Program-made: the position numbers and the translations under genes
The notes under the pieces: generated by a model
Seen by the model: only the letters and a program-made list of their open reading frames with translations
What the model was told of the DNA's origin: nothing
The model's database searches: none
Shown here: piece after piece, positions 1,822 through 19,450 of the stretch
Position numbering within the stretch: the first letter of the stretch is position 1
Layout: every line of letters begins with the position of its first letter
UHGV virus genome: UHGV-1270568
Strand: one strand, 5' to 3'
DNA length: 19,450 nucleotides
From: a virus

Positions 1822-1944
1822 TCACAGCGCGCCGCCTGTATGTCGCTGATGGCCATATTCTGTGTGGGTTCGATTATCACCATCATCGGTATCGGTGATG
1901 TCGTCCTCTGCGGGTCCGGGGTTGGTTCTGGCAACCATACTCAT
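1822..1944 (-). CDS. Possible 40-aa ORF at the M/I junction (MSMVARTNPGPAEDDITDTDDGDNRTHTEYGHQRHTGGAL); may be a junction artefact
   Basis: ATG at 1944 with AGGAG 9 nt upstream; acidic, low complexity; in-frame TGA closes the frame about 12 codons upstream of the ATG, so it is not simply the tail of a longer gene. Confidence 0.2.
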   Translation of the reverse strand: MSMVARTNPGPAEDDITDTDDGDNRTHTEYGHQRHTGGAL

Positions 1945-1956
1945 GGGGTTCACTCC

Positions 1957-2029
1957 TGAAAAAATCGGGCGGTGGGTGCGCGGTGTAAACGGTCACGGAG
2001 TCAAACCGGAACACCGCGCACGCCGCCCG
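1957..2029 (-). terminator. Terminator-like long imperfect hairpin followed by T6 on the minus strand, just downstream of M
   Basis: Minus strand reads CGGGCGGCGTGCGCGGTG ... CCGCGCACCCACCGCCCG then ATTTTTTCAGG; arms about 17 bp with a 3-nt bulge, loop about 26 nt. Confidence 0.4.
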
Positions 2030-2045
2030 CTGACGGGGTCAGTCG

Positions 2046-2846: not shown

Positions 2847-2891
2847 TTGTTCTCTCCGTTACAGGCGGGCATGATGCCCGCCGTGAGTTGA

Positions 2892-3944: not shown

Positions 3945-3967
3945 AAAAAATTTGCTCCTTTGTCTTA

Positions 3968-4804: not shown

Positions 4805-4958
4805 AGTTTTTGCCCCTCTGACTGGTTCTTCAGTCATGATGGCAAAGCGTAACAGGCTGATACAAAGGGCTTTTGTTGTAAGAAAACGGCCAGAACAGGG
4901 GGTTAAGGAGAACGGTTTCGCGCGCGGGTAATCTTCCTGTAATTACTCAGGGGGAGCA
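4805..4958. promoter_or_regulatory. Divergent late promoter region between O (minus) and P (plus)
   Basis: 154-bp non-coding spacer between divergent structural operons, as in the P2 PO/PP region. Contains the near-palindrome ACAAAGGGCTTTTGT and TGT...ACA elements, but I cannot place a canonical Ogr-type TGT-N12-ACA site. Confidence 0.4.
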
Positions 4959-6710: not shown

Positions 6711-7756
6711 TGAGCAGAAAAAATAAAAAAGTGCGCATGAGTTCACGCATTGATCTCGCTGATGCGCTCAGGAAAGAATCATCGCTCAGTGCATTCACAT
6801 TTGATGGTCCTTATCGCCTGACCGGGCATGACCTGCTGGACAATATGTACTGTGCTGATAACGGGCGGTGGTATGAAACCCCGGTGGACTGGTACGGTCT
6901 GGCAAGAGCTGCCCGGCAAACGTCCTGGCATCAGTCTGCGCTTTACTTTAAGCGCAATGTATTACTCGGTTGCTACATCCCGCACCCGTTGCTTTCCCGG
7001 CAGGATTTCTCGGCGCTGGCGCTGGACTGGTTTGTGTTCGGTAACGCATTCCTTGAGCTTCGAAGCAATATGCTCGGCGAACCGCTTAAATTACGGCACG
7101 CCCTGGCGAAATACATGCGACGCGGAAGCGATCTTGAATCATGGTGGTATGTGCAGGATGGCAAGGACGCGTTTCAGTTTCGCCCTGGCAAAGTGTGCCA
7201 CCTGATGAATCCTGACATTAACCAGGAAATCTACGGCATGCCGGAATATCTCGGCGCATTACTCTCGGCCAGCCTGTCTCATTCGGCGGACATGTTCAGA
7301 AAACTGTATTACGACAATGGATCCCACGCCGGGTGCATCATCTACATCGGTGCAGCGCAGGTAAACCGCGAAAGCATGGACTCCCTGAAAGAAACGCTAC
7401 AGGGGGCACGTGGTGGTGGTGCGTTTAAAAACGTGCTCATTCATGCGCCTAACGGGGGCAAAGAGGGGGTGCAAATTTTGCCGTTCCAGCAGATCACCGC
7501 AAAGGATGAGTTCATGAATGTTAAGGCGGCATCCCGTGATGATGTGCTGGCTGCGCACCGCGTTCCGCCGCAACTGATGGGGGCGATGCCGGGCGAAAAA
7601 AGTGCGTTTGGTGATGTGGAGAAGGCCGCGCGGGTTTACGCAATTAACGAGCTGATGCCCGTCATGGAGGCCATGAAGCACATCAATGACTGGCTTGGCG
7701 AAGAGGTGATCCGCTTTAACCCTTACGCACTGTTAGACACCCTGCCCACATCCTGA
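6710..7756 (+). CDS. Q: Portal (capsid vertex) protein, P2 gpQ-like
   Basis: 348 aa; translationally coupled to P; same size and position as P2 gpQ, last gene before the cos region. Confidence 0.85.
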   Translation: MSRKNKKVRMSSRIDLADALRKESSLSAFTFDGPYRLTGHDLLDNMYCADNGRWYETPVDWYGLARAARQTSWHQSALYFKRNVLLGCYIPHPLLSRQDFSALALDWFVFGNAFLELRSNMLGEPLKLRHALAKYMRRGSDLESWWYVQDGKDAFQFRPGKVCHLMNPDINQEIYGMPEYLGALLSASLSHSADMFRKLYYDNGSHAGCIIYIGAAQVNRESMDSLKETLQGARGGGAFKNVLIHAPNGGKEGVQILPFQQITAKDEFMNVKAASRDDVLAAHRVPPQLMGAMPGEKSAFGDVEKAARVYAINELMPVMEAMKHINDWLGEEVIRFNPYALLDTLPTS

Positions 7757-7782
7757 CGCGCTTCGCTTGTCTGCTGCTTCGC

Positions 7783-7807
7783 CGGGGCATAAAAAATTTA
7801 TGCCCCG
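7783..7807. other. Perfect 11-bp stem, 3-nt loop hairpin (CGGGGCATAAA aaa TTTATGCCCCG) 27 bp after the Q stop
   Basis: Read directly from the sequence; no U-tract on either strand, so it may be a Rho-independent-like structure without a tail or a packaging recognition element. Confidence 0.5.
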
Positions 7808-7843
7808 ACTCTCCAGCTCCTGTATCAGTCAGATAATTTCACG

Positions 7844-7863
7844 ATGCTTTCCTGCTGATTGCC
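7844..7863. other. Candidate cos cohesive-end site
   Basis: ATGCTTTCCTGCTGATTGCC. The first 8-9 nt match the complement of the P2/186 cohesive-end sequence as I remember it (GTGCTTTCCCCGCCTCGCC), and the distance from the Q stop (about 90 bp) matches P2 geometry. The rest diverges. Confidence 0.3.
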
Positions 7864-8085
7864 ATCATCGACAGTCAGACTCTTACACAATCCCACCGCG
7901 TTGACTGCATGTTCTCGCCGCCTCAGTGCGATTTTGACGGCCTTATCTTCCACTCCATCAAATCAAAAGCCCTCACGTCGTTTTCACGCTCAGCGTGAGA
8001 AATACAGCCATTCTGTTGTGTCGCTGCGACATCGTTCAGGGGATGCTATTTACCCCCTGAAACGCGGGCTGTTCCCCCGTCACCT

Positions 8086-8110
8086 GCGCGCAGAAAAAGC
8101 GCGTTTTTTT
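8086..8110 (+). terminator. Plus-strand Rho-independent terminator candidate
   Basis: Short GC stem (CGCGC / GCGCG, loop AGAAAAA) followed by TTTTTTT. Confidence 0.4.
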
Positions 8111-8180
8111 GTGCACGCACGGATCCTTGACGGATCCAGCCGCCATGCGGGCCGGAAGGGTAAAAAGTCGTTCAAAAAAA

Positions 8181-8208
8181 TTGTGCAAATTTGTGCACTT
8201 TTGTGCAA
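8181..8208. repeat. Three direct repeats TTGTGCA(A/C) at exact 10-bp spacing (8181, 8191, 8201); a fourth copy at 8109..8116
   Basis: Read directly; helical-phase periodicity suggests a protein-binding array in the cos-proximal region. Confidence 0.6.
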
Positions 8209-8233
8209 ACAAAAAGCGCCCCTGAGGCGCTTT
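8201..8233 (-). terminator. Minus-strand Rho-independent terminator closing the A / cargo operon
   Basis: 8-bp stem AAAGCGCC / GGCGCTTT with loop CCTGA at 8213..8233; on the minus strand it is followed by TTTTGTTTG. Confidence 0.55.
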
Positions 8234-8267
8234 AGTGTTTTATAGGTTGTGTATATTTGCTGGGTCC

Positions 8268-8531
8268 TTATCCTGCTGTGCTTTCAACTGATGAGGGGAA
8301 CAAAATCTTTTCATCAAACCCTGCATTCATATCATGGACAGCAACACACCAATCCATTGACGAACGATTATCAAGAGCCTCCATGATTTCATCCATGCGG
8401 CGTAGGTCATACAGGTAAATGCTTTTATCGCCAATGGTGTAAAAACCAATTTTTTTCGGTGATGGACAGCGATCAAGAACGTCCTGTAATTCGTTCAACC
8501 ATGCCCGTTCTTTTTTTGTCAAAGTTGCCAT
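8268..8531 (-). CDS. Hypothetical 87-aa protein, third gene of the cargo cassette
   Basis: MATLTKKERAWLNELQDVLDRCPSPKKIGFYTIGDK...; AAGGAGAG RBS lies inside the 17-bp linker repeat; single-nucleotide gap to the upstream stop. No family recognised. Confidence 0.6.
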   Translation of the reverse strand: MATLTKKERAWLNELQDVLDRCPSPKKIGFYTIGDKSIYLYDLRRMDEIMEALDNRSSMDWCVAVHDMNAGFDEKILFPSSVESTAG

Positions 8532-8532
8532 A

Positions 8533-9024
8533 TCACTCTCCTTTGATGCGAATACCAGTGGTACTCATTATCCTGATTTCCCAGAGCACACGAGGAACAC
8601 CACCGTTTCCGACTGGATCGCGTTTACTCCGCAGGGCGACGCTTGATTCCGCCCAGCTTTTTCTTGGAGGAAGCGCTTTCACACGAACAAAACCAGCTGC
8701 GCGAAGAGATGCTCCTGATTCATCTGCCCGGGTGTACGTAATACAACGTTGATAACCCATAGCTTTTGCTGCCCGCCAGACAGCACCATAAAGCGCGCTG
8801 TTAGCGTTGCGTTCTCCTGTGGTACATGTGCGATTTACTTCAAGCGTTAATCCATCATCCAAATGTCGTGCAACAGGTCGACCGGCTGTCGCCACACCTA
8901 TCAATTCTCCGGCATCATTTCTCAGACCAATGCTGAATTTATGCCCCACCGGGGGTTTATTGTGTCGGTGATGTCTGGATATAAACGCCTTCGCAACACG
9001 AAGAGTAACCGGTGAAATTTGCAT
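8533..9024 (-). CDS. Hypothetical 163-aa protein, possibly GNAT-like fold; second gene of the cargo cassette
   Basis: Track ORF 8533..9063; preferred start is ATG 9024 (MQISPVTLRV...) with AAGGAGAG RBS. The segment ...NANSALYGAVWRAAKAMGY... and the C-terminal ...SGASLRAAGFVRV... loosely resemble GNAT motifs; this assignment is weak. Ends ...IRIKGE encoded by the linker repeat. Confidence 0.55.
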   Translation of the reverse strand: MQISPVTLRVAKAFISRHHRHNKPPVGHKFSIGLRNDAGELIGVATAGRPVARHLDDGLTLEVNRTCTTGERNANSALYGAVWRAAKAMGYQRCITYTRADESGASLRAAGFVRVKALPPRKSWAESSVALRSKRDPVGNGGVPRVLWEIRIMSTTGIRIKGE

Positions 9025-9026
9025 TC

Positions 9027-9602
9027 TCACTCTCCTTTGATGCCAATGTTTACAGACTGGCAAGCCTCTTTGAGCACCCAGTCAACAGCGTCTTTCCATG
9101 CTCCGGTTTCGACTGGCGGATTCTCACGCTTTACCTGTTCATAGAAACGCACCGCTCTAACCAGTCCATCTGACGGTTTTGCCTGTAGTGCAGCCTGAGC
9201 TATGCGGTATGCCTGGAGCATACGGGCGTCGTTGGCTTTTTTGCGGTTGATGTTGGCTATGTCCGGCTGTGCGTTTGTGTCGAAATACTCGCTCAGTGGC
9301 AGGGTGACAACCACATCCACCTCCTGTGGCGTGATGCCTGATTTGACCAGCGCGTGATGAATGGCAATGACATTCACATCGCTGTACTGGTATTGCGTGT
9401 CAGTCGTCTGGACAAAGCGATCGCTGACCGGATCAAAACCATAGCGCACGCCATCAAGCATGTAGTTCGCGGGCTGCGTGCCACCGAACGGCGCAGACCA
9501 TTCCGACTTGAAGCTGTTCGGGCTGATGGCGTTGCGGCGTTCGCCGTTCTCAGTCCATGCCAGCTTGGTGTTGGTGGAGCCGTCATCGATACAAATTTTC
9601 AT
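9027..9602 (-). CDS. Chimeric protein: N-terminal 120-odd aa ParM/StbA-like (actin-fold ATPase N-terminus) fused to an unrelated 68-aa C-terminus
   Basis: MKICIDDGSTNTKLAW...ISPNSFK.EW...YSDVNV.A.HHAL..SG....EVD.V.T.PL......N.QP...NI.RKKAN tracks the N-terminus of plasmid R1 ParM as I remember it (phosphate-1 motif DDGSTN), then diverges. No ParM C-terminal half in any frame. AAGGAA RBS. Ends ...NIGIKGE from the linker repeat. Confidence 0.6.
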   Translation of the reverse strand: MKICIDDGSTNTKLAWTENGERRNAISPNSFKSEWSAPFGGTQPANYMLDGVRYGFDPVSDRFVQTTDTQYQYSDVNVIAIHHALVKSGITPQEVDVVVTLPLSEYFDTNAQPDIANINRKKANDARMLQAYRIAQAALQAKPSDGLVRAVRFYEQVKRENPPVETGAWKDAVDWVLKEACQSVNIGIKGE

Positions 9603-9636
9603 GTCGCTTTTCCTTATGTTGATTAATTAATCGTTT

Positions 9637-9656
9637 ACGGGATTCTGAAATCCCGT
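9637..9656. repeat. Palindrome ACGGGAT-N6-ATCCCGT, copy 1, between the A stop and the first cargo gene
   Basis: ACGGGATTCTGAAATCCCGT followed on the plus strand by TTTTGCC. Confidence 0.6.
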
Positions 9657-9678
9657 TTTTGCCTGTTTTATGCGCGCT

Positions 9679-12501
9679 TCATATATCGCGGCGCGTTTTT
9701 TGCTCATTTACGGGATTTGTGAATCCCGTTTCTGTCTGTTTTTTGTTTCCACTGGTCAGGCCACCCCGCAGCAGGTCTGCTTTGCGGCGGGCGCGTTCAG
9801 TGGTTTCACTGATTCTCTGTGCGTGCTCTGCGTCGCGGATGGCGCGCAGCATGTCAGAAAGCACGGTAACGGGTGTTTTCATGGTGTTCTGGTCTTGCTG
9901 AAGTGTGGATGCCAGGCGTGCGGCGGCTTCGGGGTCTGATGCCCTCAGCTGTTCCAGATAGCTGGCGACCGGGTTATGGCGGATCTCCGTACTGCTTACG
10001 CCGTGGTTACGGCTCAGGCGCTGCCAGAGCTGCGTGATCCGGCTGTCCGGTCGGGTATCCGGTTTGCGTACAATTTCAAATCCCTGCGGTGCAATGATGC
10101 TGCCGTCAACGTACAGACTGCCGCCCCGTAACAGGTGCTGCATCTGCTGTTCACCGATATGCAGGCCGAGAGATTCGGCAGATTCCCGCCATTCTTTAGC
10201 GAGTAATTCGTGGTTATCAGGCAAAGGCCGCTGCTGTTTGCGGCTCTGTGTCCAGCTCTGCATTTCATCACTGCTGTTTTTTGCCTGTTTGTCACGAAGC
10301 GAACGCATCAGCGCCCGGCGTTCGTGCCGTTTCAGTGAGCGCATCCATTCGTTCACGTCAACGCCGTCAGGAAGCTGCGGCCACGGTGCTGGCCGTTCTT
10401 CCGGCTGTTCTGTCCCGTTGTTGTCCGTTTCCTGTACACGGGGACAGTTATTGCCACGAGTCCAAGGGGCGGCAGGGCCGCCCTGAAGGTCAAAACCATT
10501 TTCGCGGGCGCTGTCTTCCGTTTCCGGTTTACGTCTTACCAGTTTCCAGTTATCCGGATGCGTGCACACACGGGAGGATTCCCCGATGAGTGGTGACCAG
10601 ATCCCGTAAATCTGTACGCTCTGTTCGCCGTAATCATTCAGCTCATCTGCGAGGTCGTAGGCGGTGCGAATCAGGTAGTCTTTGCGTGGAACAAGTACGC
10701 CGCCCTGTTTTTCAATGTAGGTGGCAAAACACCCGGCATCGGCGGCAGCGAGTACCGCATCCATTGCGTCATCTTTCAGTCGTTGCGGGCCTTCCGGGTT
10801 GCGTGCCATCTGGCTGGCAAGGCGGCGCAGTTCACGCCACACCTGACGGGAGGGGATGCCAAAGAACTGGAACTGGCGGACCCGATGAAGGCGCGCCCAG
10901 CCGATGGCGCGCTCCACACTCTCGGCCATTGATTTTCCGGTTTCGTGGTCAACGCGTGGCTTGCCCGTTTTCGGGTCGATGCCATCCACGGCGCGGCTGT
11001 CCAGGTTCTTTCCGATGTAGGTCGCGATATAGCTGGTTGGTGTGCCTTTTGAGCCGTCGACATACTCCGCCTTAAAGCGCGGAGTAATATCATTGCCCAG
11101 CTCGTGGCGGTCTTCCTGAATGGCAATATCGCGGGTGATGGCCACGATGCTGTCGATTTCTTCCGGATGAGCAAAGACCATCATATGCCAGTGCACGGTG
11201 CCGTCATGGTGAGGCTCCACCGTGCGGATGCCATACCAGCGAAGACCGTCGCGGTTCAGTTTTTTGCGGACCGCCGCAAAAAACGTGTTAACCAGGTAAT
11301 CGCTGGAGTCGCGCATGGTGGCCCCGTTCCATTTGGGATTCGGATGACCGTTCTCTGTTGTGGCGTGGTATTTTGACGGGCAGGTGACAGTCAGAAACAC
11401 CGCTTTGTCGCCACGGGCTTCGGCCAGAAGTTCCAGCCCCTTCATGGTGGCCATCATTTCTGCCTTACGGTGAACCGGGTTACTTACTCCCGCGTAATAC
11501 ACTGTCTCGAGATCAATCGTGAACCCGTCTTCGTTTTCCAGCATGAAACTTTTCAGGAAATCGCGTGTTTTCTCGCGCTGTGCGCGAAACTCGCTTAACG
11601 CGTCCTGGCTCAGATAGGGTGATGTTTTTCTGGAAACCAGACAGGCGGCGCGGAGTTGTTCTTCTCTCCACTCGCAACGTAACAGCCACAGTTTGCGTTT
11701 CCACCATTCCGCACAGGTCAGGCGAAGGACTGCGCCCGGCAGCAGCTCCGTGTCCGGTTCGTTCCTCCGGTCTTTATCTGTTGTCAGTGCGTCATAATGT
11801 GGAGGCATGATGTGCAGGTGTAACGCCATGCGGGCCAGCATCTGATACGCCTTCAGCGTTACATCCATGGTCAGCTCGCCATCTCTGGCACCAAAGCCAT
11901 CACAGAGTTTTTCGAAGGTGCTGCTGAACATCGCCGCCGTCATGGTGGCCAGCGACTGTATCTGGTGTTTGTTGAGCTGCGGCAGGTAAAGCAAATCGTC
12001 CAGGCGTTCGCGTCCGGCAAGGGAGCGATAACCCGGTGTCAGCCAGTGTCCGTCAGTGCGATCCAGACGTTCGAATATTTTGCGCAGGGTTCCGCGTGCA
12101 TAGCGTTCCGCCTGCCAGCTCTTTTTGCCTTTCCGGCGATCGGCTTCCTGTTTTTTGCGCAGGAAGGAGAGGTGGCGAATAAGCGGATCGCGCAGATAGG
12201 ACGGCAGCAGGCGCAGCGAGGCCATGGCTTCATCCACCGCGCCACGTGCCTGTTTTCTGGCTTCTCTGGCCAGTGTGATGGTTTTGTCCTGTTTTTCCTG
12301 TGCGTCCAGGCTTTTATTAATCAGGTTGCCCAGCGGCGTGGCGGAGAACGCCGCATCAGCCATTTCCTGGCGGCGCTCGTTCTCTGCCCGGTAGGCATCC
12401 AGCCAGGAGGAAAGCTCGGATTCAGGAGCGGGGATTCCCGTTCCTTCACGACCCACTGCGTGGCGCGGTTGTTGCCAGTCCCTGATGTACTCTGCCGTCA
12501 T
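9679..12501 (-). CDS. A: Rolling-circle replication initiation endonuclease, P2 gpA-like
   Basis: 940 aa; HUH-type motif TVHWHMMVFA (about residue 437) and paired-tyrosine motif TSYIATYIGK (Y491/Y495), matching the P2 gpA active site arrangement as I recall it; sits downstream of the early operon. Confidence 0.85.
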   Translation of the reverse strand: MTAEYIRDWQQPRHAVGREGTGIPAPESELSSWLDAYRAENERRQEMADAAFSATPLGNLINKSLDAQEKQDKTITLAREARKQARGAVDEAMASLRLLPSYLRDPLIRHLSFLRKKQEADRRKGKKSWQAERYARGTLRKIFERLDRTDGHWLTPGYRSLAGRERLDDLLYLPQLNKHQIQSLATMTAAMFSSTFEKLCDGFGARDGELTMDVTLKAYQMLARMALHLHIMPPHYDALTTDKDRRNEPDTELLPGAVLRLTCAEWWKRKLWLLRCEWREEQLRAACLVSRKTSPYLSQDALSEFRAQREKTRDFLKSFMLENEDGFTIDLETVYYAGVSNPVHRKAEMMATMKGLELLAEARGDKAVFLTVTCPSKYHATTENGHPNPKWNGATMRDSSDYLVNTFFAAVRKKLNRDGLRWYGIRTVEPHHDGTVHWHMMVFAHPEEIDSIVAITRDIAIQEDRHELGNDITPRFKAEYVDGSKGTPTSYIATYIGKNLDSRAVDGIDPKTGKPRVDHETGKSMAESVERAIGWARLHRVRQFQFFGIPSRQVWRELRRLASQMARNPEGPQRLKDDAMDAVLAAADAGCFATYIEKQGGVLVPRKDYLIRTAYDLADELNDYGEQSVQIYGIWSPLIGESSRVCTHPDNWKLVRRKPETEDSARENGFDLQGGPAAPWTRGNNCPRVQETDNNGTEQPEERPAPWPQLPDGVDVNEWMRSLKRHERRALMRSLRDKQAKNSSDEMQSWTQSRKQQRPLPDNHELLAKEWRESAESLGLHIGEQQMQHLLRGGSLYVDGSIIAPQGFEIVRKPDTRPDSRITQLWQRLSRNHGVSSTEIRHNPVASYLEQLRASDPEAAARLASTLQQDQNTMKTPVTVLSDMLRAIRDAEHAQRISETTERARRKADLLRGGLTSGNKKQTETGFTNPVNEQKTRRDI
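9710..9729. repeat. Palindrome ACGGGAT-N6-ATCCCGT, copy 2, inside the last about 15 codons of A
   Basis: ACGGGATTTGTGAATCCCGT, followed on the plus strand by a T-rich run; a third GC hairpin plus T6 lies between the two copies (9672..9701). Confidence 0.6.
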
Positions 12502-12507
12502 AGTGAT

Positions 12508-12873
12508 TTACTTCGTCATGCCATTCAGGGTGTCGCGGCAGACTGTAGCCAGCCGCTGAATTTCCAGCACGGTGTCTTCTGTGTCGGCATGGCGATGTGT
12601 GATGCGGATGCTGTCGGCAATCACATCGACGATTGCAGAGGATGGGCGCTGGTAAATGCCAATAACGGACGGGGTGCCACCTTCAATGCGGTAAAGCCTG
12701 TAATTTTCCTCATGGCTGTCAATCATGTAGCGACCATCAATAACAATCTTTCCGTCAGCGAGCTGCGGTACAGGCAGGGATTTCAGGTACATGTCATAAC
12801 GATCACGCACGCGAGCGGCAAGATCACGTTCTGTGTTGAGCAGGTATTCAAGAAAGTCGTTGGCGAGAATCAT
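12508..12873 (-). CDS. Hypothetical 121-aa early protein immediately upstream of A
   Basis: Strong AAGAGGA RBS 8 nt before ATG 12873; stop 6 nt before the A start; no family recognised. Confidence 0.6.
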   Translation of the reverse strand: MILANDFLEYLLNTERDLAARVRDRYDMYLKSLPVPQLADGKIVIDGRYMIDSHEENYRLYRIEGGTPSVIGIYQRPSSAIVDVIADSIRITHRHADTEDTVLEIQRLATVCRDTLNGMTK

Positions 12874-12945
12874 TGCGGCAATCCTCTTGCTACAGATGTG
12901 CGAAGGCCTCCCGCCGCAAGGTGCAGGAAAGGCCTGGAACAGGAA

Positions 12946-13176
12946 TTAATGGAGTTTGTTTTGCTGCTGGATGAGCTGCTGAAGCTCGCGCAGATCATCC
13001 GCCAGATAGCTGAAAACAGAGGCGGAATAAATGTTTGATAGTGCGTGGCTGCGCTCATGCAGCATATTGATGTGCATGATTTGCGCGACGCGTGATGCGC
13101 GGAAAAGTCTGCGGTTGATTTCAGTCTGGATGTGACGACGCTCCGCGATAGCGCGGTGCTGTTTGCGGTTTGCCAT
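12946..13176 (-). CDS. Hypothetical 76-aa basic protein
   Basis: MANRKQHRAIAERRHIQTEINRRLF...; GAGAGG RBS; first gene after the 13177..13543 non-coding stretch. Confidence 0.5.
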   Translation of the reverse strand: MANRKQHRAIAERRHIQTEINRRLFRASRVAQIMHINMLHERSHALSNIYSASVFSYLADDLRELQQLIQQQNKLH

Positions 13177-13233
13177 GATGTGGCCTCTCTGTTAGTTAGT
13201 TTTGAAAACTCACCATCCAGAGGTTCCAAGCTC

Positions 13234-13314
13234 GGGGTGGTGAGACGTACAGGGTTGGAACTACCGGCTAACAGAGGACCCGGCCCAGCTGATGCTGGCC
13301 CTGTACGCCCCACC
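13234..13314. other. Highly structured non-coding element in the leader of the 76-aa / 121-aa / A unit
   Basis: Plus-strand CGTACAGGG (13246..13254) pairs with CCCTGTACG (13299..13307), extended by GGTGG/CCACC, enclosing an inner hairpin CCAGC-TGAT-GCTGG (13285..13298). Confidence 0.4.
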
Positions 13315-13353
13315 ATAATTCTGACGCGAAAAAGACGTGGCGATACGGCACGC

Positions 13354-13376
13354 ACAAAAAAACCGCTGGCGCGGTT
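13354..13376 (-). terminator. Minus-strand Rho-independent terminator
   Basis: Minus strand AACCGC-GCCA-GCGGTT followed by TTTTTTTG. Confidence 0.55.
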
Positions 13377-13512
13377 GTGCGCTCTGTTAGTCTGCGGGGT
13401 TCCAATCCCGGCACCCGTTTTATGAGGTGCAGCGGAAATGTAACCTGACTGATTGCGGCATGGCAAGCGGTTTTTTTGTGAGAACGGCATACTAAAAAAT
13501 CCTGATACTGCT

Positions 13513-13537
13513 CCGGCCAGCGGTTTTCACTGGCCGG
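13513..13537 (-). terminator. 8-bp GC-rich hairpin 3 nt after the SPFH gene stop
   Basis: CCGGCCAG / CTGGCCGG stem with 9-nt loop; the T-run on the minus strand is 12 nt distal, so efficiency is uncertain. Confidence 0.4.
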
Positions 13538-13543
13538 GTTTAA

Positions 13544-14374
13544 TTACTTCACCGGAACAAACGGAACAGCGGTGTTACTGGTCATGTATTGCGGTAGCGT
13601 GCCGTTCCATTTGTTAATCGCTTCCAGCTCCATAACGCCGGGATTCTGGCGCAGAGCTTCACCGCGTAAACGAATGGCGTCGGCTTCAGCCTGGGCTTTT
13701 GTGCGAATGGCATCGGCTTGTCCGGCAGCTTCTGCGCGCAGCATGTTGGCTTCAGCTTCGCGTTGCTTGACTTCCTGTTCACGTTGCAGGGTTTTCTGGT
13801 TTGCCGTGACTTTGGCATTAATGCTGTCGATAACGGTTGGCGGGTATTCCGGCTTACCCACATAAGAGAGGCTCATTACCTGAATGCCGATAGGTGTCAT
13901 TTCTGCCTGAATGTCTTTAAGTGCTGAATCCAGCAGTTCAGACTTGCCACCGTCGATAAATTTATCGGTGGTCATTTTGCTGGCCAGTCGGTTGAGTGCG
14001 TCGGCGATCTTCTGGCGCAGGTCAGTGTCGGTAATGTCATCCACGCCTTTGCGGTAGGTCTGAAACACTGTAGTAACTTTGGATGGATCAACCTTGTAGG
14101 CCACACCGATGTGATAGCCGATGGTTGTGCCGTCACTCATCTGAAAGCTGAACGGCTCATCGTAGGTCTTCATTTGTTTGAAGGTCGGGAAGATGTAAAC
14201 CTCGGTATTCCAGCCAGTCCAGTAGCGGCCAACGCCAACCACTTCGCCAACGCCTTTGTCGTCGCCCAGCTTGTTGACTTTGATGCCCACATTACCTGGC
14301 TCAACGCGATCGCAGCCAACCAGCAGGATGGCGGCAAAAAGCGGGAGAATCTGAAAGAGTTTGAATTTCTTCAT
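13544..14374 (-). CDS. SPFH / band-7 (prohibitin, HflC-like) domain lipoprotein
   Basis: 276 aa; N-terminal signal peptide with lipobox LLVGC; C-terminal Ala/Glu/Arg/Gln-rich coiled coil (QREQEVKQREAEANMLRAEAAGQADAIR...) typical of SPFH proteins; start overlaps upstream stop (ATGA). Confidence 0.7.
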   Translation of the reverse strand: MKKFKLFQILPLFAAILLVGCDRVEPGNVGIKVNKLGDDKGVGEVVGVGRYWTGWNTEVYIFPTFKQMKTYDEPFSFQMSDGTTIGYHIGVAYKVDPSKVTTVFQTYRKGVDDITDTDLRQKIADALNRLASKMTTDKFIDGGKSELLDSALKDIQAEMTPIGIQVMSLSYVGKPEYPPTVIDSINAKVTANQKTLQREQEVKQREAEANMLRAEAAGQADAIRTKAQAEADAIRLRGEALRQNPGVMELEAINKWNGTLPQYMTSNTAVPFVPVK

Positions 14375-14574
14375 TGTTTAATTTCCTTGATGTACTTACT
14401 GAAAAGGCGAACAACGCCTGCCGGGTACAGCATGGCAATGAAAATGCCCAGCAATACCAGGAAAGAGCTGTCTGATGAAATCATTCGGGGGAGTACCCCT
14501 ACATACAGAATGAGAGAGACGAGGACGCATACTAGCGCCCATGCATATGCACGAAACCATGTCTTGTTGTTCAT
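14371..14574 (-). CDS. Small membrane protein (67 aa, two predicted TM helices) coupled to the SPFH gene
   Basis: Track ORF 14371..14706 overlaps the upstream gene; preferred start is ATG 14574 (MNNKTWFRAYAWALVCVLVSLILYVGVLPRMISSDSSFLVLLGIFIAMLYPAGVV...) with AAGGG RBS. Confidence 0.55.
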   Translation of the reverse strand: MNNKTWFRAYAWALVCVLVSLILYVGVLPRMISSDSSFLVLLGIFIAMLYPAGVVRLFSKYIKEIKQ

Positions 14575-14584
14575 GTTGCGGCCC

Positions 14585-14881
14585 TTACTGGTTAAGGAAA
14601 AAATCGAAAACCTTGTCAATGCGTTGCAGCAGCTCTTGCTGTATTGCTTCCGGCGTTTCCGGTTCGCCTGGCGCCTCCAACGTCGCGCAGAAATCAGCGA
14701 TTTCATGATGGAGTGTCAGGCGAATGGCAGGGGCCGTGGTTCTGGCGTGCTCCAACTCATCCAGCAGTGCCAACACCACTGACGGTTGTAAGCTCACGCG
14801 AGATGGTAGTGATTCATGGGGGGGTATTCTTTGCACGGCAGTCGCCAGTTCGCGTAGTTCCTGGTGGTTGATGATGCTCAT
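14585..14881 (-). CDS. Hypothetical 98-aa early protein
   Basis: ATG overlaps upstream stop (ATGA); no family recognised. Confidence 0.5.
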   Translation of the reverse strand: MSIINHQELRELATAVQRIPPHESLPSRVSLQPSVVLALLDELEHARTTAPAIRLTLHHEIADFCATLEAPGEPETPEAIQQELLQRIDKVFDFFLNQ

Positions 14882-15123
14882 GCTCTGGCTTCCTTCAGTA
14901 ACTGGTTAAACATATTGGTAAGTGGATTGCCGCACCCGAACGGCATCGGGTTTACCTGGTAAGAGAAGCGACCACCTGTTTTGCGCTCTTTTCTTATGAC
15001 TGAACCGCTACGCCAGAGTCGGCGTAACTCCGCATTAATAGCTGTGGTTGGGGTATTCAGTGCTGCGGCGATTTCTCCACCGCTACACCCCGGATTGGCG
15101 GCGATATAGTCCAGAATGGTCAT
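14878..15123 (-). CDS. Small putative winged-helix DNA-binding protein (81 aa)
   Basis: Preferred start is ATG 15123 (AGGAG 8 nt upstream, ATGA overlap with upstream stop); ILDYIAANPGCSGGEIAAALNTPTTAINAELRRLWRSGSV looks like a helix-turn-helix / wing. Confidence 0.5.
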   Translation of the reverse strand: MTILDYIAANPGCSGGEIAAALNTPTTAINAELRRLWRSGSVIRKERKTGGRFSYQVNPMPFGCGNPLTNMFNQLLKEARA

Positions 15124-15323
15124 CTGCATGACTCCTGTACCTGTCGGATAAGGTTCACCCGCACCACGTTGGTGGCGCAGAAGTAAGTGCCGTCAGTGAG
15201 GTAGATGTGGTGTGCATCCTTTTCTGAACGGTGTTTGTCGATTGTGGTAATCAGGCGTTCGTCGACTTCGTATTCACGTCCTCTGGAGGTAAAACGAACG
15301 ACAGGAAAGTGCTTAATTGCCAT
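15120..15323 (-). CDS. Hypothetical 67-aa early protein
   Basis: Track ORF 15120..15383 overlaps the upstream gene; internal ATG 15323 (MAIKHFPVVRF...) is the likely start. Start is uncertain. Confidence 0.35.
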   Translation of the reverse strand: MAIKHFPVVRFTSRGREYEVDERLITTIDKHRSEKDAHHIYLTDGTYFCATNVVRVNLIRQVQESCR

Positions 15324-15630
15324 TGCGCCCACTGTTCTGTTTCTGGCGACGGATGCGGGATAGCTGGATTTCCAGCTCTTCAATGTGGTCGTGCAACTCG
15401 TCTATTTCGGCGAAAAGCGAATCAAGGGTTGATGAGAGTTCCGTTAACAGGGCCTTTGCCGCCAGTGCAACAGTAAACGTGCCGATGTCGCGTTCCGGGT
15501 CAATTTCACTAACAAGTGTTCTGGTTAGTTCAAGAGCGACGGGGAGCGCCTCTTCCAGTTTGCAATCCTGGAGATGAGCAAGAATAGTTAATGCGTCGCA
15601 TTGAATTTTGTCTTCTTTATTTTGTTTCAT
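15313..15630 (-). CDS. Hypothetical 105-aa acidic helical early protein
   Basis: Complete ORF in operon context; no family recognised. Confidence 0.5.
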   Translation of the reverse strand: MKQNKEDKIQCDALTILAHLQDCKLEEALPVALELTRTLVSEIDPERDIGTFTVALAAKALLTELSSTLDSLFAEIDELHDHIEELEIQLSRIRRQKQNSGRNGN

Positions 15631-15720
15631 CGTTGCCGCCTTATTTGAATGTACAAAGCCCTCCGCGAGTGCGGATTGTTTTCATGTTTTCTTATTTAAT
15701 CGTGTGTTTTATTTGTGCTG

Positions 15721-15834
15721 TTATTCTTCAGTGAAAAAACGCTCAATCTTTTTTACTGAATGAATAATTCGCACAATGCCAATTGCGCAGACCACTGAAA
15801 TAATCAGAACAATCCATGACATAAATATACTCAT
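15721..15834 (-). CDS. Candidate 37-aa single-TM peptide (MSIFMSWIVLIISVVCAIGIVRIIHSVKKIERFFTEE)
   Basis: Not in the ORF track (under 60 aa); ATG 15834 overlaps the upstream stop (ATGA); hydrophobic core then basic tail. Confidence 0.3.
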   Translation of the reverse strand: MSIFMSWIVLIISVVCAIGIVRIIHSVKKIERFFTEE

Positions 15835-16073
15835 GCGATATTCCCCAGCTTATACGGTTCAATATGTTCTCCGCATTCTGCGGCACAGACCAGCTCGGAA
15901 AGTTCGTTAAGTGCATCCAGATCATCAGCGTAAAAAGCCACGTCATACAGACTCCGGATTGCCCTGGTCAATGAGTCACGGGCTGCACGTTCAGCATGAA
16001 CGCCTGATGCGCTTAAGCGAAAATAAAAACGCTCAAGTGCTTTGTTGATGAGTGTTTTATATTCTTTGTCCAT
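15831..16073 (-). CDS. Hypothetical 80-aa early protein
   Basis: AAAGGGTG RBS before ATG 16073. Confidence 0.5.
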   Translation of the reverse strand: MDKEYKTLINKALERFYFRLSASGVHAERAARDSLTRAIRSLYDVAFYADDLDALNELSELVCAAECGEHIEPYKLGNIA

Positions 16074-16084
16074 TGCAACACCCT

Positions 16085-16363
16085 TTAATCTGCTTTCTGG
16101 ATTTCAGTTTCTGAATCCATGCAAATAATTTCGATATAGGGTTCATTGCCATTAACCTGACGTGCCTTTTCAGCTTCGCTAATGATTTCGCGTACAGTCT
16201 GGTACGGAAGTTCTACGGTCAGGCGCGTGCCGTTCAGATAAACGTAAGTAGCTGCATTTTTTTCTGATGGGACGACTCCATCAATAGCTGATGCGCGTAA
16301 TAACAGTTCACCGCGAAAATCAATAAAACGGATAAATACACCTTGTGCATGCTCTTTGGTCAT
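16085..16363 (-). CDS. Hypothetical 92-aa early protein
   Basis: Track ORF 16085..16462 overlaps the upstream gene; start chosen at ATG 16363 (MTKEHAQGVF...) with AGGTG RBS. Confidence 0.45.
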   Translation of the reverse strand: MTKEHAQGVFIRFIDFRGELLLRASAIDGVVPSEKNAATYVYLNGTRLTVELPYQTVREIISEAEKARQVNGNEPYIEIICMDSETEIQKAD

Positions 16364-16373
16364 AACGCACCTG

Positions 16374-16712
16374 TTATAAATCAGTCTGTTTAATAAAACT
16401 TTGCCCGCGAAGCAGACGATCAACCGTGCGAAGTGCTTCGTACAATGTGAAATCCTGTCCAAACTGATTGTCGCCGTTGCTCAGAGCAAAAATGCGGTTT
16501 CCGGTAAATGGGTTGCGTTGGCATCTGTGAACCACGATTCCAGCTTTTTCAATCAGCCAGGTGTGTTCGCCAATTTGTTTTACTGTATGGCCATCTGGCG
16601 TTGCGTGTGTTTCGCTCAGGCTGTAGCGAGAGTTGCTGCGTGATGCACTGGTAGTGAAACGGTTAGCGTGGCGTTCTGTTCCGGTACGAAAATTACGGCG
16701 TTGCTTCAGCAT
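16374..16712 (-). CDS. Hypothetical 112-aa early protein
   Basis: GAGGTG RBS 8 nt before ATG 16712; second gene of the early operon. Confidence 0.5.
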   Translation of the reverse strand: MLKQRRNFRTGTERHANRFTTSASRSNSRYSLSETHATPDGHTVKQIGEHTWLIEKAGIVVHRCQRNPFTGNRIFALSNGDNQFGQDFTLYEALRTVDRLLRGQSFIKQTDL

Positions 16713-16726
16713 AAAATGACACCTCG

Positions 16727-17005
16727 TTATTTTGTCATCTGCACGTATTTTTCTGCGCTCCTGATTGTTTTCAGGAAAAGAGCGAAGAGATTTACTGTGC
16801 GTCTTGAGTTCTTTTCATCCTGGTTGATGGGAATTGAACCTCTGTCAGCCTGTCTTTTCACTGTGTTAACAGCTTGGTTGGTACGCTTTGCGTAATCTTT
16901 CAGGCTTTCTTCAAGTACTGGTAACCCATGCTCATCGCGGTAGGGATAGAACGCTGCTAAACGCTCAAAGTCTGCCTGTTCGTGTGTGTTCAGGACTTTT
17001 GCCAT
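16727..17005 (-). CDS. cox: Cox-like small DNA-binding protein (excision / lysogenic-promoter repression), first gene of the early operon
   Basis: 92 aa, divergent from C across the operator region; segment YAKRTNQAVNTVKRQADRGSIPI resembles the P2 Cox helix-turn-helix as I recall it. Overall similarity is modest. Confidence 0.5.
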   Translation of the reverse strand: MAKVLNTHEQADFERLAAFYPYRDEHGLPVLEESLKDYAKRTNQAVNTVKRQADRGSIPINQDEKNSRRTVNLFALFLKTIRSAEKYVQMTK

Positions 17006-17101
17006 GTGTGATAACCTGCGCTATCTGTGGTTGTTTGTGACTTGGTGTACTTATAAGTACACCTTGTGCGCAAGCTTAGTGTACTTATAGGAACACTGTC
17101 A
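17006..17101. promoter_or_regulatory. Immunity switch region: divergent promoters with repressor operator repeats
   Basis: Perfect 20-bp palindrome GGTGTACTTATAAGTACACC (17044..17063) and a second GTGTACTTATA copy (17080..17090), 34 bp apart, between cox and C. Confidence 0.6.
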
Positions 17102-17410
17102 ATGCTTATCGGTGAAAAAATTAGAGTGATTCGTGAATCAGAGGATTTAACGCGCGAAGAATTTTGCGGCCTGATTGATGTGCCTATCGGCACTTTGCGT
17201 CGTTATGAAACGGGGCGGATTGAAAACATAGGGGGCGAAGTGCTTATCAAGATTGTTAATCACCCTCGCTTTTTTAAGTACATGAATTGGCTTATGACGG
17301 GAAAAACAAATGAGGCTGCTGGGCAGATCAGTCCGTCTCTCTCCCCTGATGGGCCAAAAAGCACATCGCCTTCTCAAAAACCCCGCAAGACTGGCACACA
17401 GCCCGGCTAA
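17102..17410 (+). CDS. C: Immunity repressor, P2 C-like helix-turn-helix protein
   Basis: Track ORF 17066..17410; start chosen at ATG 17102 (MLIGEKIRVIRESEDLTREEFCGLIDVPIGTLRRYETGR...FFKYMNWLMTGK...) with AGGAA RBS; matches the P2 C pattern as I recall it. Confidence 0.75.
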   Translation: MLIGEKIRVIRESEDLTREEFCGLIDVPIGTLRRYETGRIENIGGEVLIKIVNHPRFFKYMNWLMTGKTNEAAGQISPSLSPDGPKSTSPSQKPRKTGTQPG

Positions 17411-17459
17411 TCATGGAGCGCTGGGGGCATGGTGGTCTTGTAACGCTGGGGTTTCACGA

Positions 17460-18468
17460 ATGAGCATAAAATCAATTCCGGGAGGGTATCTTCTTGACAT
17501 GCGCCCGGAGGGGCGTAAAGGCAAACGCATTCGTAAAAAATTTAAAACGAAATCGGATGCAGTTTTATATGAGCGGTGGGTGCTGGCGCAACAGCATAAC
17601 AATGAGTGGAAAGGAAACTCTATTGATCGCCGTCCTCTGTCAGTGCTTATTGACTTGTGGTGGAAATACCACGGCCAGCTAATGAAGTCAGGGCATAACA
17701 CGCGCCTTAAATTGCTGCGCTTGAGTGAGGCAATGGATGACCCGTGCGTGCATAAACTTAATACAACGATGCTNNNNNNNNNNNNNNNNNNNNNNNNNNN
17801 NNNNNNNCGAGCTACGTGTGTCCAGGATAGAGCAGGGGATACAGCCCAGCACCATAAATCGAGAGATTGGGGCGTTAAGCGCGATGTTTACCGCACTCAT
17901 CTCATCCGGCCATTTTCTTAATGATAACCCCGTTCAAGGCCTTAAAGGAATGAAGGTTAACGAGCGTGAAATGGGATATCTGAGTAAGTCTGAATGTGTT
18001 CAGTTGCTGGATGCACTGGCTGAAAATCCCGATGAACGGCTGGCTGTCGAAATCCTTCTGTCGACCGGGGCGCGATGGGGCGAGGTAGCGGCACTGGAGC
18101 AGCGCCGTGTTCTTCATTGTCGAATCACTTTTTCAAAAACGAAGAACAGCAAAAACCGTACCGTTCCTATTTCTGAAAGCCTGTTTGAAAAGATCAAAAA
18201 ACGGGGCGGGAAACTGGTGTTTCCGACGCTGGATTATTCATTGGTTCGCGATGTCATCAAAACGGTCGCACCTGATGTTCCTGACGGCCAGGCTGTTCAT
18301 GCGCTGCGCCACACCTTCGCCAGTCATTTCATGATGAACGGCGGCAATATTCTGACGCTCCAGAAAATTCTGGGGCACGCAAAGATTCAGACAACGATGA
18401 TTTATGCCCATCTTGCGCCGGATTACCTGCAGGATGCGGTGAGGTTTAATCCACTAGGAGGTGCTTAA
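17460..18468 (+). CDS. int: Tyrosine integrase, P2 Int-like, interrupted by an assembly gap
   Basis: Track ORFs 17310..17921 and 17725..18468 are two pieces of one gene split by Ns. N-terminal MSIKSIPGGYLLDMRPEGRKGKRIRKKF...; C-terminal LSTGARWGE, HALRHTFASHFMMNGG and LGHAKIQTTMIYAHLAPDYLQDA carry the recombinase R..H.R..Y catalytic signature. Confidence 0.85.
17774..17807. other. Assembly gap of 34 N inside int
   Basis: Run of n characters; the flanking int reading frames are offset by one nucleotide, so the stated gap length is not the true length. Confidence 0.95.
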
Positions 18469-18470
18469 GA

Positions 18471-18833
18471 GTGAAGTTTCATTTAGATGAACTTAAAAGA
18501 ATGGCAACGCTCGATAATTTTGCGCGTTTTCTCAATGAGTCGTCTACGAATGAAAAATGTTTGTCGTGTGGCGATACGGATATGTACATGTATTTGACGA
18601 ATATTGTTGAGGTGGGGCCTGAGCCGAAAACTGCTGAGGAGTGTGATTTAGGCACTCTTGTTATGCTTGATTATATCGGTCCATTTACTGGGTATCCGGG
18701 ATATGAGGGACATGATCGGGAAAATATCCATAACTATGAATTCCGACTTACCTGTAACAGATGTGGGTTTGTTCATCGTTACTCGGCCCGGGCCTTTATG
18801 AACTGGGTAGGCAAGCAGGGTGATGAGAAGTGA
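18471..18833 (+). CDS. Hypothetical 120-aa protein with two CxxC pairs (putative zinc ribbon), coupled to int
   Basis: GTG start 3 nt after the int stop with GGAGG RBS; CLSCGD ... CNRCGF; AT-rich codon usage compared with the phage core. Confidence 0.5.
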   Translation: MKFHLDELKRMATLDNFARFLNESSTNEKCLSCGDTDMYMYLTNIVEVGPEPKTAEECDLGTLVMLDYIGPFTGYPGYEGHDRENIHNYEFRLTCNRCGFVHRYSARAFMNWVGKQGDEK

Positions 18834-19270
18834 TGGCAGAGAATGTTGCACATATTTCGCGGTTCAGAAAAAAGAAAGAGAATGCCTATAATGTATCCAA
18901 CAACCAAGTAACAGGAAGTGGTAATGATGGAGGTGATGGCATGAATGACGACCTTGAACGGCGGGTCAGTTGCCTGGAAAGTGATGTGACTGAAATCAAA
19001 AACAACCTGATTACTCTCACCACAAGAAGCGAATCCTTTGCTACCAAATCTGATGTACTGGAGATTCGCGAAGGGTTGAGGCTTGAGATGGCAGAATCTC
19101 GCCAATCCCTGAAGTCTGAGATGGCTGATTTACGCCAGTCTCTGAAAGTTGAGATGGCTGAGCATCGTACTGAACTTCAGAAATCATTTGCAAATCAGAC
19201 TTGGTTACTCACAGGTATTGTCCTGTCTGCGATGGCCGTGCTTGTGGCTGTGGTTACTGTTATTAAGTAA
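18833..19270 (+). CDS. Coiled-coil protein with C-terminal TM anchor and three tandem 11-aa repeats
   Basis: Start either ATG 18833 (overlaps upstream stop, TGATG; the track's GTG 18830 is an alternative) or internal ATG 18941 with strong GGAGGTG RBS. Repeats EMAESRQSLKS / EMADLRQSLKV / EMAEHRTELQK (33-bp DNA repeats), then WLLTGIVLSAMAVLVAVVTVIK. Confidence 0.5.
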   Translation: MAENVAHISRFRKKKENAYNVSNNQVTGSGNDGGDGMNDDLERRVSCLESDVTEIKNNLITLTTRSESFATKSDVLEIREGLRLEMAESRQSLKSEMADLRQSLKVEMAEHRTELQKSFANQTWLLTGIVLSAMAVLVAVVTVIK

Positions 19271-19395
19271 ATTTATGGCGGCGATATGATCCACAAAGTG
19301 ACCACATCCCTGTTATTTGTTGTGGTTGGCTGTGTTTTTGTGTGTCTGTAAGTCTTTGATAATTATCTAACTTATTGATTTTTACTTGTGTTTAT

Positions 19396-19420
19396 GGCCG
19401 CTCTGCGGCCTTTTTTCTTT
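19396..19420 (+). terminator. Plus-strand Rho-independent terminator
   Basis: GGCCGC-TCT-GCGGCC followed by TTTTTTCTTTTC. Confidence 0.6.
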
Positions 19421-19450
19421 TCACTGTCGAAGAGTCACCGTAAAATCAAC

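Follow-up and report, generated by a model that had tools for sequence, protein, structure and literature searches.

An exchangeable two-gene cassette behind the integrase gene of a P2-like Escherichia coli prophage encodes a predicted zinc-ribbon protein and a predicted tail-anchored coiled-coil protein

Introduction

Phage lysogeny modules encode membrane proteins for superinfection exclusion (Sie), among them Sie2009 and Ltp, and in one such system, SieF7/2AB, a membrane protein is found together with a protein that bears a zinc motif (PMC3952083, PMC7693887). Here, we describe two small open reading frames (ORFs), ORF1 and ORF2, which follow the integrase gene int in the UHGV virus genome UHGV-1270568 (19,450 nucleotides (nt), analyzed over its whole length and referred to as the window) and which encode a predicted zinc-ribbon protein and a predicted tail-anchored coiled-coil protein. 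Like Sie2009, Ltp, and SieF7/2AB, the pair sits beside int and a repressor gene and has a membrane-associated member, the membrane helix of ORF2 being predicted. The three described systems are known to be expressed from the prophage, whereas expression of the ORF1-ORF2 cassette is deduced from gene order. The cassette shares with SieF7/2AB the combination of a membrane protein and a zinc-motif protein, but the motif of SieF7/2AB is metalloprotease-like and not a C4 ribbon. Furthermore, the Gram-positive Sie proteins are anchored or exposed outside the membrane, by an N-terminal anchor or as lipoproteins, unlike ORF2, which is predicted to face the cytoplasm, and they have no sequence relationship to the cassette proteins.

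Two families of membrane proteins resemble ORF2 in design. The DUF1640 proteins (MCUR1, CCDC90B, yeast Put6 and Put7, and prokaryotic members) have a coiled-coil stalk, a single C-terminal membrane helix, and a β-layer motif at the start of the stalk, which in ORF2 reads FATKSD. Unlike these proteins, ORF2 seems to lack a globular head of the MCUR1 type and instead places around 30 helical residues and a tethered 36-residue peptide before the β-layer; it is also phage-borne and always paired with a zinc-ribbon gene. XhlA of the Bacillus PBSX-type prophages is, like ORF2, a short phage-encoded protein in which a coiled coil at the N terminus precedes a membrane helix at the C terminus, but it belongs to a lysis cassette rather than a lysogeny operon and has no zinc-ribbon partner. 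For ORF1, the likeness is to generic C4 zinc ribbons (Zn_ribbon_13/DUF2082, the rubredoxin-like domain of rubrerythrin, and CpXC), which have two CxxC knuckles with the second at a β-hairpin turn, as a structural model predicts for ORF1.

Results

ORF1 and ORF2 occupy an exchangeable slot inside the prophage

The window comes from a P2-like prophage of E. coli, of which it spans the two thirds nearest the immunity region, and is 99.9% identical to a prophage of E. coli strain 2014C-4587. There the order is ihfA, Hok/Gef, ogr, the tail, baseplate, lysis, head, and terminase genes, an accessory locus, the replication endonuclease, early genes, a helix-turn-helix repressor, int, two hypothetical proteins, and btuC. 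The right end of the window contains the following features:

17460-18468, + strand: tyrosine integrase gene int (RefSeq 'phage integrase' in the 99.9% identical prophage; ORF list)
18471-18833, + strand: ORF1, a 120-residue predicted cytosolic C4 zinc-ribbon protein (profile search, family alignment, AlphaFold2)
18833-19270, + strand: ORF2, a 145-residue predicted tail-anchored coiled-coil protein, with an ATG that overlaps the ORF1 stop
19271-19395, + strand: phage attP arm, GC 0.34, kept among prophages with different cargo
19396-19420, + strand: att core GGCCGCTCTGCGGCCTTTTTTCTTT, 25 bp, which is the ihfA intrinsic terminator (matches attL and the empty site)
19421-19450, + strand: host DNA upstream of btuC (genome matches, empty site)

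A run of 34 N at 17774-17807 interrupts int and artificially splits it into two ORFs; because the window is 31 nt longer at this point than the related prophages L002 and L003, the run stands for about 3 nt.

The preliminary description of this locus had named an attachment site between int and the two genes as the arrangement that would turn them into host genes. The att core was located 125 bp downstream of ORF2, where it is the only strong terminator-like site (6 GC pairs). In NZ_CP027342, the identical 25 bp follow ihfA at attL. The unoccupied site in BL21 reads ihfA, GGCCGCTCTGCGGCCTTTTTTCTTT, btuC, with ORF1 and ORF2 absent. Since the core lies downstream of both genes and is duplicated at the two prophage ends, ORF1 and ORF2 are inside the prophage. 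Nothing was found in favor of the alternative that they are host genes outside it, and its probability is negligible: besides the duplicated core and the empty BL21 ihfA-btuC site, host identity starts only at 19396 (among 5426 complete E. coli genomes, 5418 begin to match the query no earlier than this position), and the two genes are carried by just 86 of the 5426 genomes (∼1.6%), in strains from many hosts.

Alignment of the window with two prophages at the same site gave 96-97% identity through int to ∼18452-18461 and again from 19281-19286 to the end, with nothing alignable between. The attP arm, which is 96-98% identical in L002 and L003 from 19281 and 19286 onward, was found in 301 of the 5426 genomes; 86 of these carry the window pair, 23-39 carry a divergent pair, and 158 carry an unrelated gene of 131 residues. 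The interval 18462-19280 is thus an exchangeable cassette of two accessory genes, placed between int and attP in a slot for which E. coli has three alternative cargoes. A 2026 survey lists the int-att interval as a minor defense hotspot of P2-like phages (PMC13586616).

In phage 186, the corresponding slot is occupied by Orf69, the last gene after cI and int in the annotated pL lysogenic operon (pL, cI, int, Orf69, and a terminator beyond attP). Orf69 is like the cassette in this position, but unlike it in being a protein of LAPDGTYVGG-like repeats, of which there are about eight in tandem (L045 2158-2409); as a candidate relative of the window pair it was rejected, the sequences being unrelated.

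The cassette is coupled to int and shares the composition of the early region

The int stop codon TAA (18466-18468) is followed 3 nt later, across a gap of 2 nt, by the GTG start of ORF1 at 18471. The ribosome-binding site of ORF1 lies within int:

18456-18463, + strand: Shine-Dalgarno sequence AGGAGGTG for ORF1, within the last int codons and 7 nt before the GTG

The TGA of ORF1 (18831-18833) overlaps the ATG of ORF2 (18833) as TGATG, and the RefSeq starts of both genes are identical in the 99.9% identical prophage. With this layout, translation of ORF1 would be coupled to that of int and translation of ORF2 to that of ORF1, in agreement with the coupling to int first proposed for the locus; the start then given for ORF2 was a GTG at 18830, and the annotated ATG is the next codon.

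ORF1 and ORF2 have GC contents of 0.433 and 0.445, with a GC content at third codon positions (GC3) of 0.43 in both. Across 1-15300 the GC content is 0.539, and the late genes in that part have GC3 values of 0.60-0.69. The GC content of int is 0.492 and that of the early/immunity block 15301-18468 is 0.466, with stretches near 0.41. The two genes are therefore AT-rich relative to the structural core and barely distinguishable from their immediate neighborhood, and because this AT-richness is shared with the adjacent early region, composition alone is weak evidence of recent acquisition. The real evidence of acquisition is the cassette swap. The preliminary description had called the pair an AT-rich, acquired moron. 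In the GC and GC3 comparison it differs from the late genes (GC 0.44 versus 0.54) and hardly from the neighboring region (0.466), and what stands of the moron claim is that the pair is exchangeable cargo at the int-proximal end.

We detected no promoter upstream of ORF1, where the gap after int is too short for a promoter or a terminator. With no detected promoter of its own, and presumably riding the lysogenic operon, the cassette does not look like a classical autonomous moron here. The pair in Morganella has its own promoter-like site (10/12) and its own terminator with a 13-bp stem. A promoter inside the N-terminal extension of ORF2 was considered and rejected as a conserved feature, a promoter-like match being present in only 2 of 13 loci and the 3 matches counted in the window region falling below the shuffle mean of 4.0. 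From gene order, the cassette would be the last part of the repressor-int operon to be expressed in the lysogen, a placement like that of Orf69 in phage 186, and the lysogenic transcript would stop at the ihfA terminator, which is rebuilt at attR.

ORF1 belongs to a small family with four invariant cysteines

An exhaustive profile search over 1.84 billion representative proteins returned only 35 clusters of ORF1 relatives, all of them small proteins, and the named sources all belong to Enterobacterales. C30, C33, C95, and C98 are invariant in the 36 family sequences; G99 and W112 are likewise invariant across the 35 clusters. The cysteines form two knuckles:

18558-18569, + strand: first CxxC knuckle of ORF1, residues 30-33 (alignment)
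18753-18764, + strand: second CxxC knuckle of ORF1, residues 95-98 (alignment)

The family has further features of its own, namely conserved N-terminal helices (TPxLFxxFL), a long variable insert (the central loop, residues ∼40-85), and a C-terminal helix with the invariant Trp. Two AlphaFold2 models with predicted local distance difference test (pLDDT) scores of 67 and 64 agree on the layout, which runs from two helices through the first knuckle, the poorly predicted insert, and a hairpin to the C-terminal helix; C95 and C98 are modeled at the turn between strands 89-95 and 101-105. ORF1 matches PHROG 4293 (E 1.7e-30), a PHROG without an assigned function. Weak matches to zinc-ribbon families came from a few family members (best E 1.6e-5); no zinc-ribbon family was matched by more than 4 of the 36 members, and none by the window ORF1. 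The fold and sequence searches returned no relative with a known function, and the family profile against the PDB gave only XPA zinc-finger noise (E 0.03). We assign ORF1 to a small, uncharacterized family of C4 zinc-ribbon proteins, in which metal binding is predicted.

Comparison of alleles revealed unequal selection on the two genes: at equal synonymous divergence (dS), the ratio of non-synonymous to synonymous rates (dN/dS) is 0.17-0.55 for ORF1, 0.00-0.02 for the ORF2 core, and 0.00-0.10 for int. For an allele with dS ∼0.2, the counts are as follows:

ORF1: 13 synonymous, 30 non-synonymous, dN/dS 0.55
ORF2 core: 14 synonymous, 1 non-synonymous, dN/dS 0.02
int: 27 synonymous, 4 non-synonymous, dN/dS 0.04

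Judged by these substitutions, ORF1 and ORF2 are both real coding genes, the ORF1 protein evolving fast, mainly in the central insert, and ORF2 being frozen. An antisense ORF at 18779-19105 (- strand) was rejected on the dN/dS of 0.02 of the + strand frame.

ORF2 is a predicted tail-anchored stalk of variable length

ORF2 matches PHROG 9415 (E 1.3e-42), another PHROG without an assigned function, and a tblastn search of ORF2 against isolated phages gave no match. It was analyzed in alignments of close homologs (A1) and of the wider family (A5), and has the following parts:

18833-18940, + strand: N-terminal extension, residues 1-36, ending in the Gly/Asp-rich linker SGNDGGDG
18929-18943, + strand: internal GGAGGTG and the Met37 codon (ATG 18941), a possible second start giving a 109-residue isoform
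19037-19054, + strand: β-layer motif FATKSD, residues 69-74, between the N-terminal heptad segment and the stalk
19055-19186, + strand: hendecad (11-residue) stalk, residues 75-118 (repeat and periodicity analysis)
19202-19264, + strand: predicted C-terminal transmembrane helix, residues 124-144, starting at the invariant Trp124 (hydropathy)

The family layout begins with a variable peptide of 30-47 residues, a Gly/Asp-rich linker, and a nearly invariant Met; a heptad segment (LERRVxxLExDVxxIK) and the motif (F/L/Y)(A/S)TK(S/A)D follow, and a stalk of very variable length leads to the invariant Trp and the membrane helix.

Several gene callers start ORF2 at M37, and many database entries are 109 residues long. 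The frame of the extension is open, and starts at, abuts, or overlaps the ORF1 stop, in 13 of 13 loci with DNA from divergent lineages, so the long form is very likely translated; an N-terminal motif, K-E/D-R/K-D-V/I, is common to several ORF2 lineages. The internal GGAGGTG lies 6 nt upstream of the Met37 ATG. In 9 of 13 loci, which are not independent of each other, a GGAG core precedes the internal Met by 5-8 nt; M37 itself is invariant in A1 and kept in at least 90% of the A5 sequences. GGA is a rare Gly codon in E. coli. Taken together, the conserved core and the rarity of the codon make a second, shorter isoform of 109 residues possible.

The β-layer consensus, [aliphatic]-A-T-K-[polar]-[DE], has been described in DUF3782 and DUF1640 membrane proteins at the stalk start of trimeric coiled coils (PMC4786415). 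FATKSD fits it, although the first position is an aromatic Phe where the consensus has an aliphatic residue. K72 and D74 are invariant in A1, and D74 is still invariant in A5. The best PDB profile matches of the family are the β-layer coiled coils 6h9l (E 4e-4) and 7o92, aligned on ATKxD, with the caveat that a coincidental GGSGM tag provides part of the score for GCN4 fusion constructs; the 6h9l alignment falls on repeated ATKEDI motifs.

Within the stalk, a tandem repeat of period 33 (19083-19161; Tandem Repeats Finder score 100, 81% matches) has a 13-nt core in three in-register copies, inside a hendecad register of four units. The repeat units EMAESRQSLKS, EMADLRQSLKV, and EMAEHRTELQK have a hydrophobic periodicity of 3.67 residues. 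Close homologs have 1, 2, 3, or 4 units, changing in steps of 11 residues with the register kept, and stalk length varies widely over the whole family. The predicted membrane helix (Kyte-Doolittle mean 2.65) is followed by one residue, and the family as a whole keeps a single membrane helix at the C terminus. The three in-phase 11-residue repeats and the C-terminal membrane segment were seen correctly in the preliminary description, as was the general character of the two proteins, and the variation in repeat number that it proposed as a check is present; its comparison of ORF2 to 'membrane-active' proteins is not supported, the closest sequence relatives being stalk proteins of the trimeric DUF1640/XhlA type.

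These relationships are below the family cutoffs. The window ORF2 scores 10.9 bits (E 0.43) against Pfam PF07798 (DUF1640/CCDC90-like), which has a cutoff of 33.5; the best relative, the L002 allele, reaches 26.8 bits (E 5.4e-6), also sub-threshold, and 4 of 18 family members have E≤0.01. In RefSeq, WP_001689686.1, a divergent allele from E. coli, bears the name 'DUF1640 domain-containing protein'. Two short relatives of ORF2, L006 and L050, score 28.6 and 24.6 bits against Pfam XhlA (PF10779; cutoff 34.7, not reached), and the window ORF2 has no match to this family. As all Pfam matches are sub-threshold, ORF2 is described as DUF1640/XhlA-like in predicted design and filed as a member of neither family.

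The pair is conserved across phages of Enterobacterales

An ORF1 relative is directly followed by an ORF2 relative in 16 of the 16 loci examined, two of which are decayed: ORF2 is lost and ORF1 kept in Sodalis (frameshift) and in Regiella (insertion sequence). Most pairs are in P2-like prophages of Enterobacterales, where the position varies. The pair follows int in E. coli, Klebsiella, Serratia-type, and Sodalis loci. In three IMG/VR contigs and in Pectobacterium, it is placed between repressor and int, and in Providencia, Morganella, and one metagenomic contig, it lies beyond attP next to ogr. It is also found in the lambdoid siphophages Klebsiella ST101-KPC2phi6.1 and Salmonella SPN3UB (gp24/gp25); the SPN3UB pair adjoins the arc/ant immunity region, and genes for a secreted protein and a lipoprotein come next. 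Narrower scans of viral-contig loci mostly returned near-identical E. coli loci.

In E. coli O145 RM12367-C1 (L002 4964-5460), the ORF1 relative is frameshifted, which cuts off the second CxxC, and the ORF2 relative is intact. Because sister strains have 1039 nt over this region versus 1038, the lesion is likely to be either confined to this strain or an error of sequencing.

At the loci with the pair between repressor and int (L042 4486-5532, L043 4119-5204, and L046 3268-4276), the C terminus of the repressor and the N terminus of the next gene product share the motif NRVAGRDY/NRTAGRDF/NRAAGRDF. The gene after the repressor encodes a protein of ∼200-210 residues with a C-terminal hydrophobic tail and a precomputed Pfam Flk_N assignment. 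The Pectobacterium locus adds a VasI-like protein.

Discussion

The anatomy, location, and operon logic of the cassette are well supported, and function is the weakest step. ORF1 and ORF2 are a real, conserved, uncharacterized prophage accessory pair in a known kind of slot, and not a categorically new feature. Lysogenic conversion or exclusion, the roles named in the preliminary description, are plausible. We tentatively favor, from context only, an exclusion or abortive-infection (Abi) module that is expressed in the lysogen and protects it against superinfecting phages, and we regard this as a reading that is possible while falling somewhat short of probable.

In such a module, ORF2 would insert into the inner membrane by its C-terminal helix, and residues 37-123 (∼13 nm if fully helical) would form a parallel, probably trimeric coiled coil facing the cytoplasm. 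The number of hendecad units would set the length of this stalk, which would carry the FATKSD β-layer and, at its membrane-distal tip, the 36-residue peptide on the Gly/Asp tether. ORF1 would be a soluble C4 zinc-ribbon protein working with ORF2, so that the variable part, ORF1, may provide specificity or sensing and ORF2 the conserved membrane component. Acting at the cytoplasmic face of the inner membrane, the pair could either block phage genome entry in the manner of Sie proteins or, as in Abi systems, damage the membrane through ORF2 when triggered by ORF1. Position in the lysogeny operon, a swappable slot at a reported hotspot, and the combination of a membrane protein with a fast-evolving soluble partner fit a defense role. 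The immunity-region and envelope-protein company of the pair in other phages fits as well, as do, by analogy, the Gram-positive precedents Sie2009, Ltp, and SieF7/2AB. Six of eight randomly chosen loci of unknown function in P4 hotspots gave protection (PMC13586616).

Several observations weigh against a defense role. Searches of ORF1 and ORF2 against Pfam, NCBIfam, PHROGs, and PADLOC gave only the PHROGs of unknown function and chance-level matches, those of the window proteins in PADLOC-DB v2.0.0 having E values of 0.03 and 0.007. Outside SPN3UB-type phages, the pair is associated with int and att and not with the main P2 defense hotspots, and could have a role in lysogeny. Trimerization, topology, and contact between ORF1 and ORF2 are features that we infer, and expression in the lysogen is deduced from gene order. 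There is a weak link to the PADLOC candidate PDC-S64 from two distant ORF1 relatives: the Morganella protein (L050 5001-5504) matches positions 160-282 of 339 (E 2.8e-6), and one of the 36 family members has a match with E 4e-4. This hints that an ORF1-like domain may occur in a defense-island candidate. Literature searches on the RefSeq accessions and PDC-S64 found nothing.

A more specific version, which we consider rather unlikely, is that the pair is an unrecognized two-component anti-phage system of Enterobacterales prophages. Gain and loss of 11-residue units would tune the length of a trimeric α/β coiled-coil stalk, anchored in the inner membrane and facing the cytoplasm; the stalk would present the tethered peptide to a fast-evolving zinc-ribbon sensor; and translation from either the upstream start or the conserved internal one (ribosome-binding site and Met) would yield a long and a short isoform which, as in holin/antiholin pairs, would set the trigger.

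Other functions were weighed against the same evidence. Two small overlapping genes with the putative neutralizer first recall an addiction or toxin-antitoxin-like module, in which ORF2 would be a membrane-damaging toxin and ORF1 its neutralizer, stabilizing the prophage. The strict pairing in 16 of 16 contexts, the loss of ORF2 with retention of ORF1 in Sodalis and Regiella, and the presence of a Hok/Gef gene at the other end of the same prophage type agree with this idea. However, a type II system is suggested by gene layout alone, since neither protein matches a known toxin or antitoxin family in Pfam, NCBIfam, or PADLOC; ORF2 resembles a structural stalk and not a short pore-forming peptide; and the single case of RM12367-C1 combines a frameshifted ORF1 relative with an intact ORF2 relative, a state in which a lethal unchecked toxin should not be tolerated. 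We judge an addiction role unlikely. The same low likelihood attaches to an accessory of the lysogeny machinery, a membrane-tethered complex that would tune how lysogeny is established, maintained, or induced, or how the prophage integrates and excises, perhaps by holding a regulator at the membrane or presenting it there. The pair is co-translated with int, always abuts int/attP or lies between repressor and int in P2-like phages, and adjoins arc/ant in SPN3UB, as such a role would predict, but it is dispensable: 158 of the 301 genomes with the attP arm have the unrelated gene, against 86 with the pair, and P2 and 186 do without it. It occurs on both sides of attP and with different, unrelated types of repressor and int, which fits cargo better than a core regulator.

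Lysogenic conversion unrelated to phages, in which the stalk protein would alter the host envelope or physiology (stress tolerance, colonization) with ORF1 as a cofactor, is improbable to a similar degree. The position of the cassette is one that would be expressed in the prophage state, its carriers are strains from many hosts, and the closest ORF2 relatives, the DUF1640 proteins MCUR1/CCDC90B and Put6/Put7, are membrane scaffolds (PMC7519068). There is, on the other hand, no link to virulence or metabolic families, every context examined places the family in phages or prophages, and a fast ORF1 beside a frozen ORF2 suggests a conflict-type interaction. Least likely of the functional alternatives, and very unlikely in itself, is an XhlA-like lysis accessory that would aid holin and endolysin late in the lytic cycle. 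XhlA of PBSX is a membrane-associated lysis-cassette protein, and two ORF2 relatives approach the Pfam family with the sub-threshold scores given above; the window ORF2 itself has no such match, the cassette lies on the lysogenic strand behind int and far from the holin, M15 peptidase, and LysC cassette, and a cytoplasm-facing stalk has no obvious role in lysis.

Often, the range of other phages that a strain resists is set by prophage genes expressed in the lysogen, and genes of unknown function in P2/P4 hotspots have a good record as defense systems (PMC13586616). The cassette described here is compact (∼0.8 kb), strictly paired, present in several genera, and absent from defense databases. 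It would also offer a genetically tractable bacterial handle on the tail-anchored stalk of DUF1640/MCUR1 type. Should the pair be inert against phages, it would be one more uncharacterized prophage accessory pair.

Other features of the prophage

At the opposite end of the same prophage type, a gene for a Hok/Gef family toxin lies between attL and ogr (L054 4958-5098), so that both att-proximal ends carry small membrane-protein cargo. The right end of this prophage type is abutted by btuC. In a 2026 survey, 'BtuC permease' is counted among auxiliary metabolic genes carried by P2-like viruses (PMC13100340). Calls of this kind could stem from host flank drawn into the prophage boundaries.

In the early region, two Rfam matches score above the gathering threshold, a C4 antisense RNA (13233-13320, - strand, 78.5 bits) and the Hfq-binding small RNA isrK (13356-13430, - strand, 72.4 bits). 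The interval between the replication endonuclease and portal genes (7757-9678) corresponds in position to the main P2 defense hotspot. It holds a truncated ParM/StbA_N protein (9027-9602, - strand, E 4.5e-64), a weakly Mom-like ORF of 176 residues (8533-9063, - strand), and an ORF of 87 residues; none of the proteins of this interval matched a PADLOC model. In place of this content, the related prophage in NZ_CP027342 encodes an S8 peptidase and an AAA ATPase.

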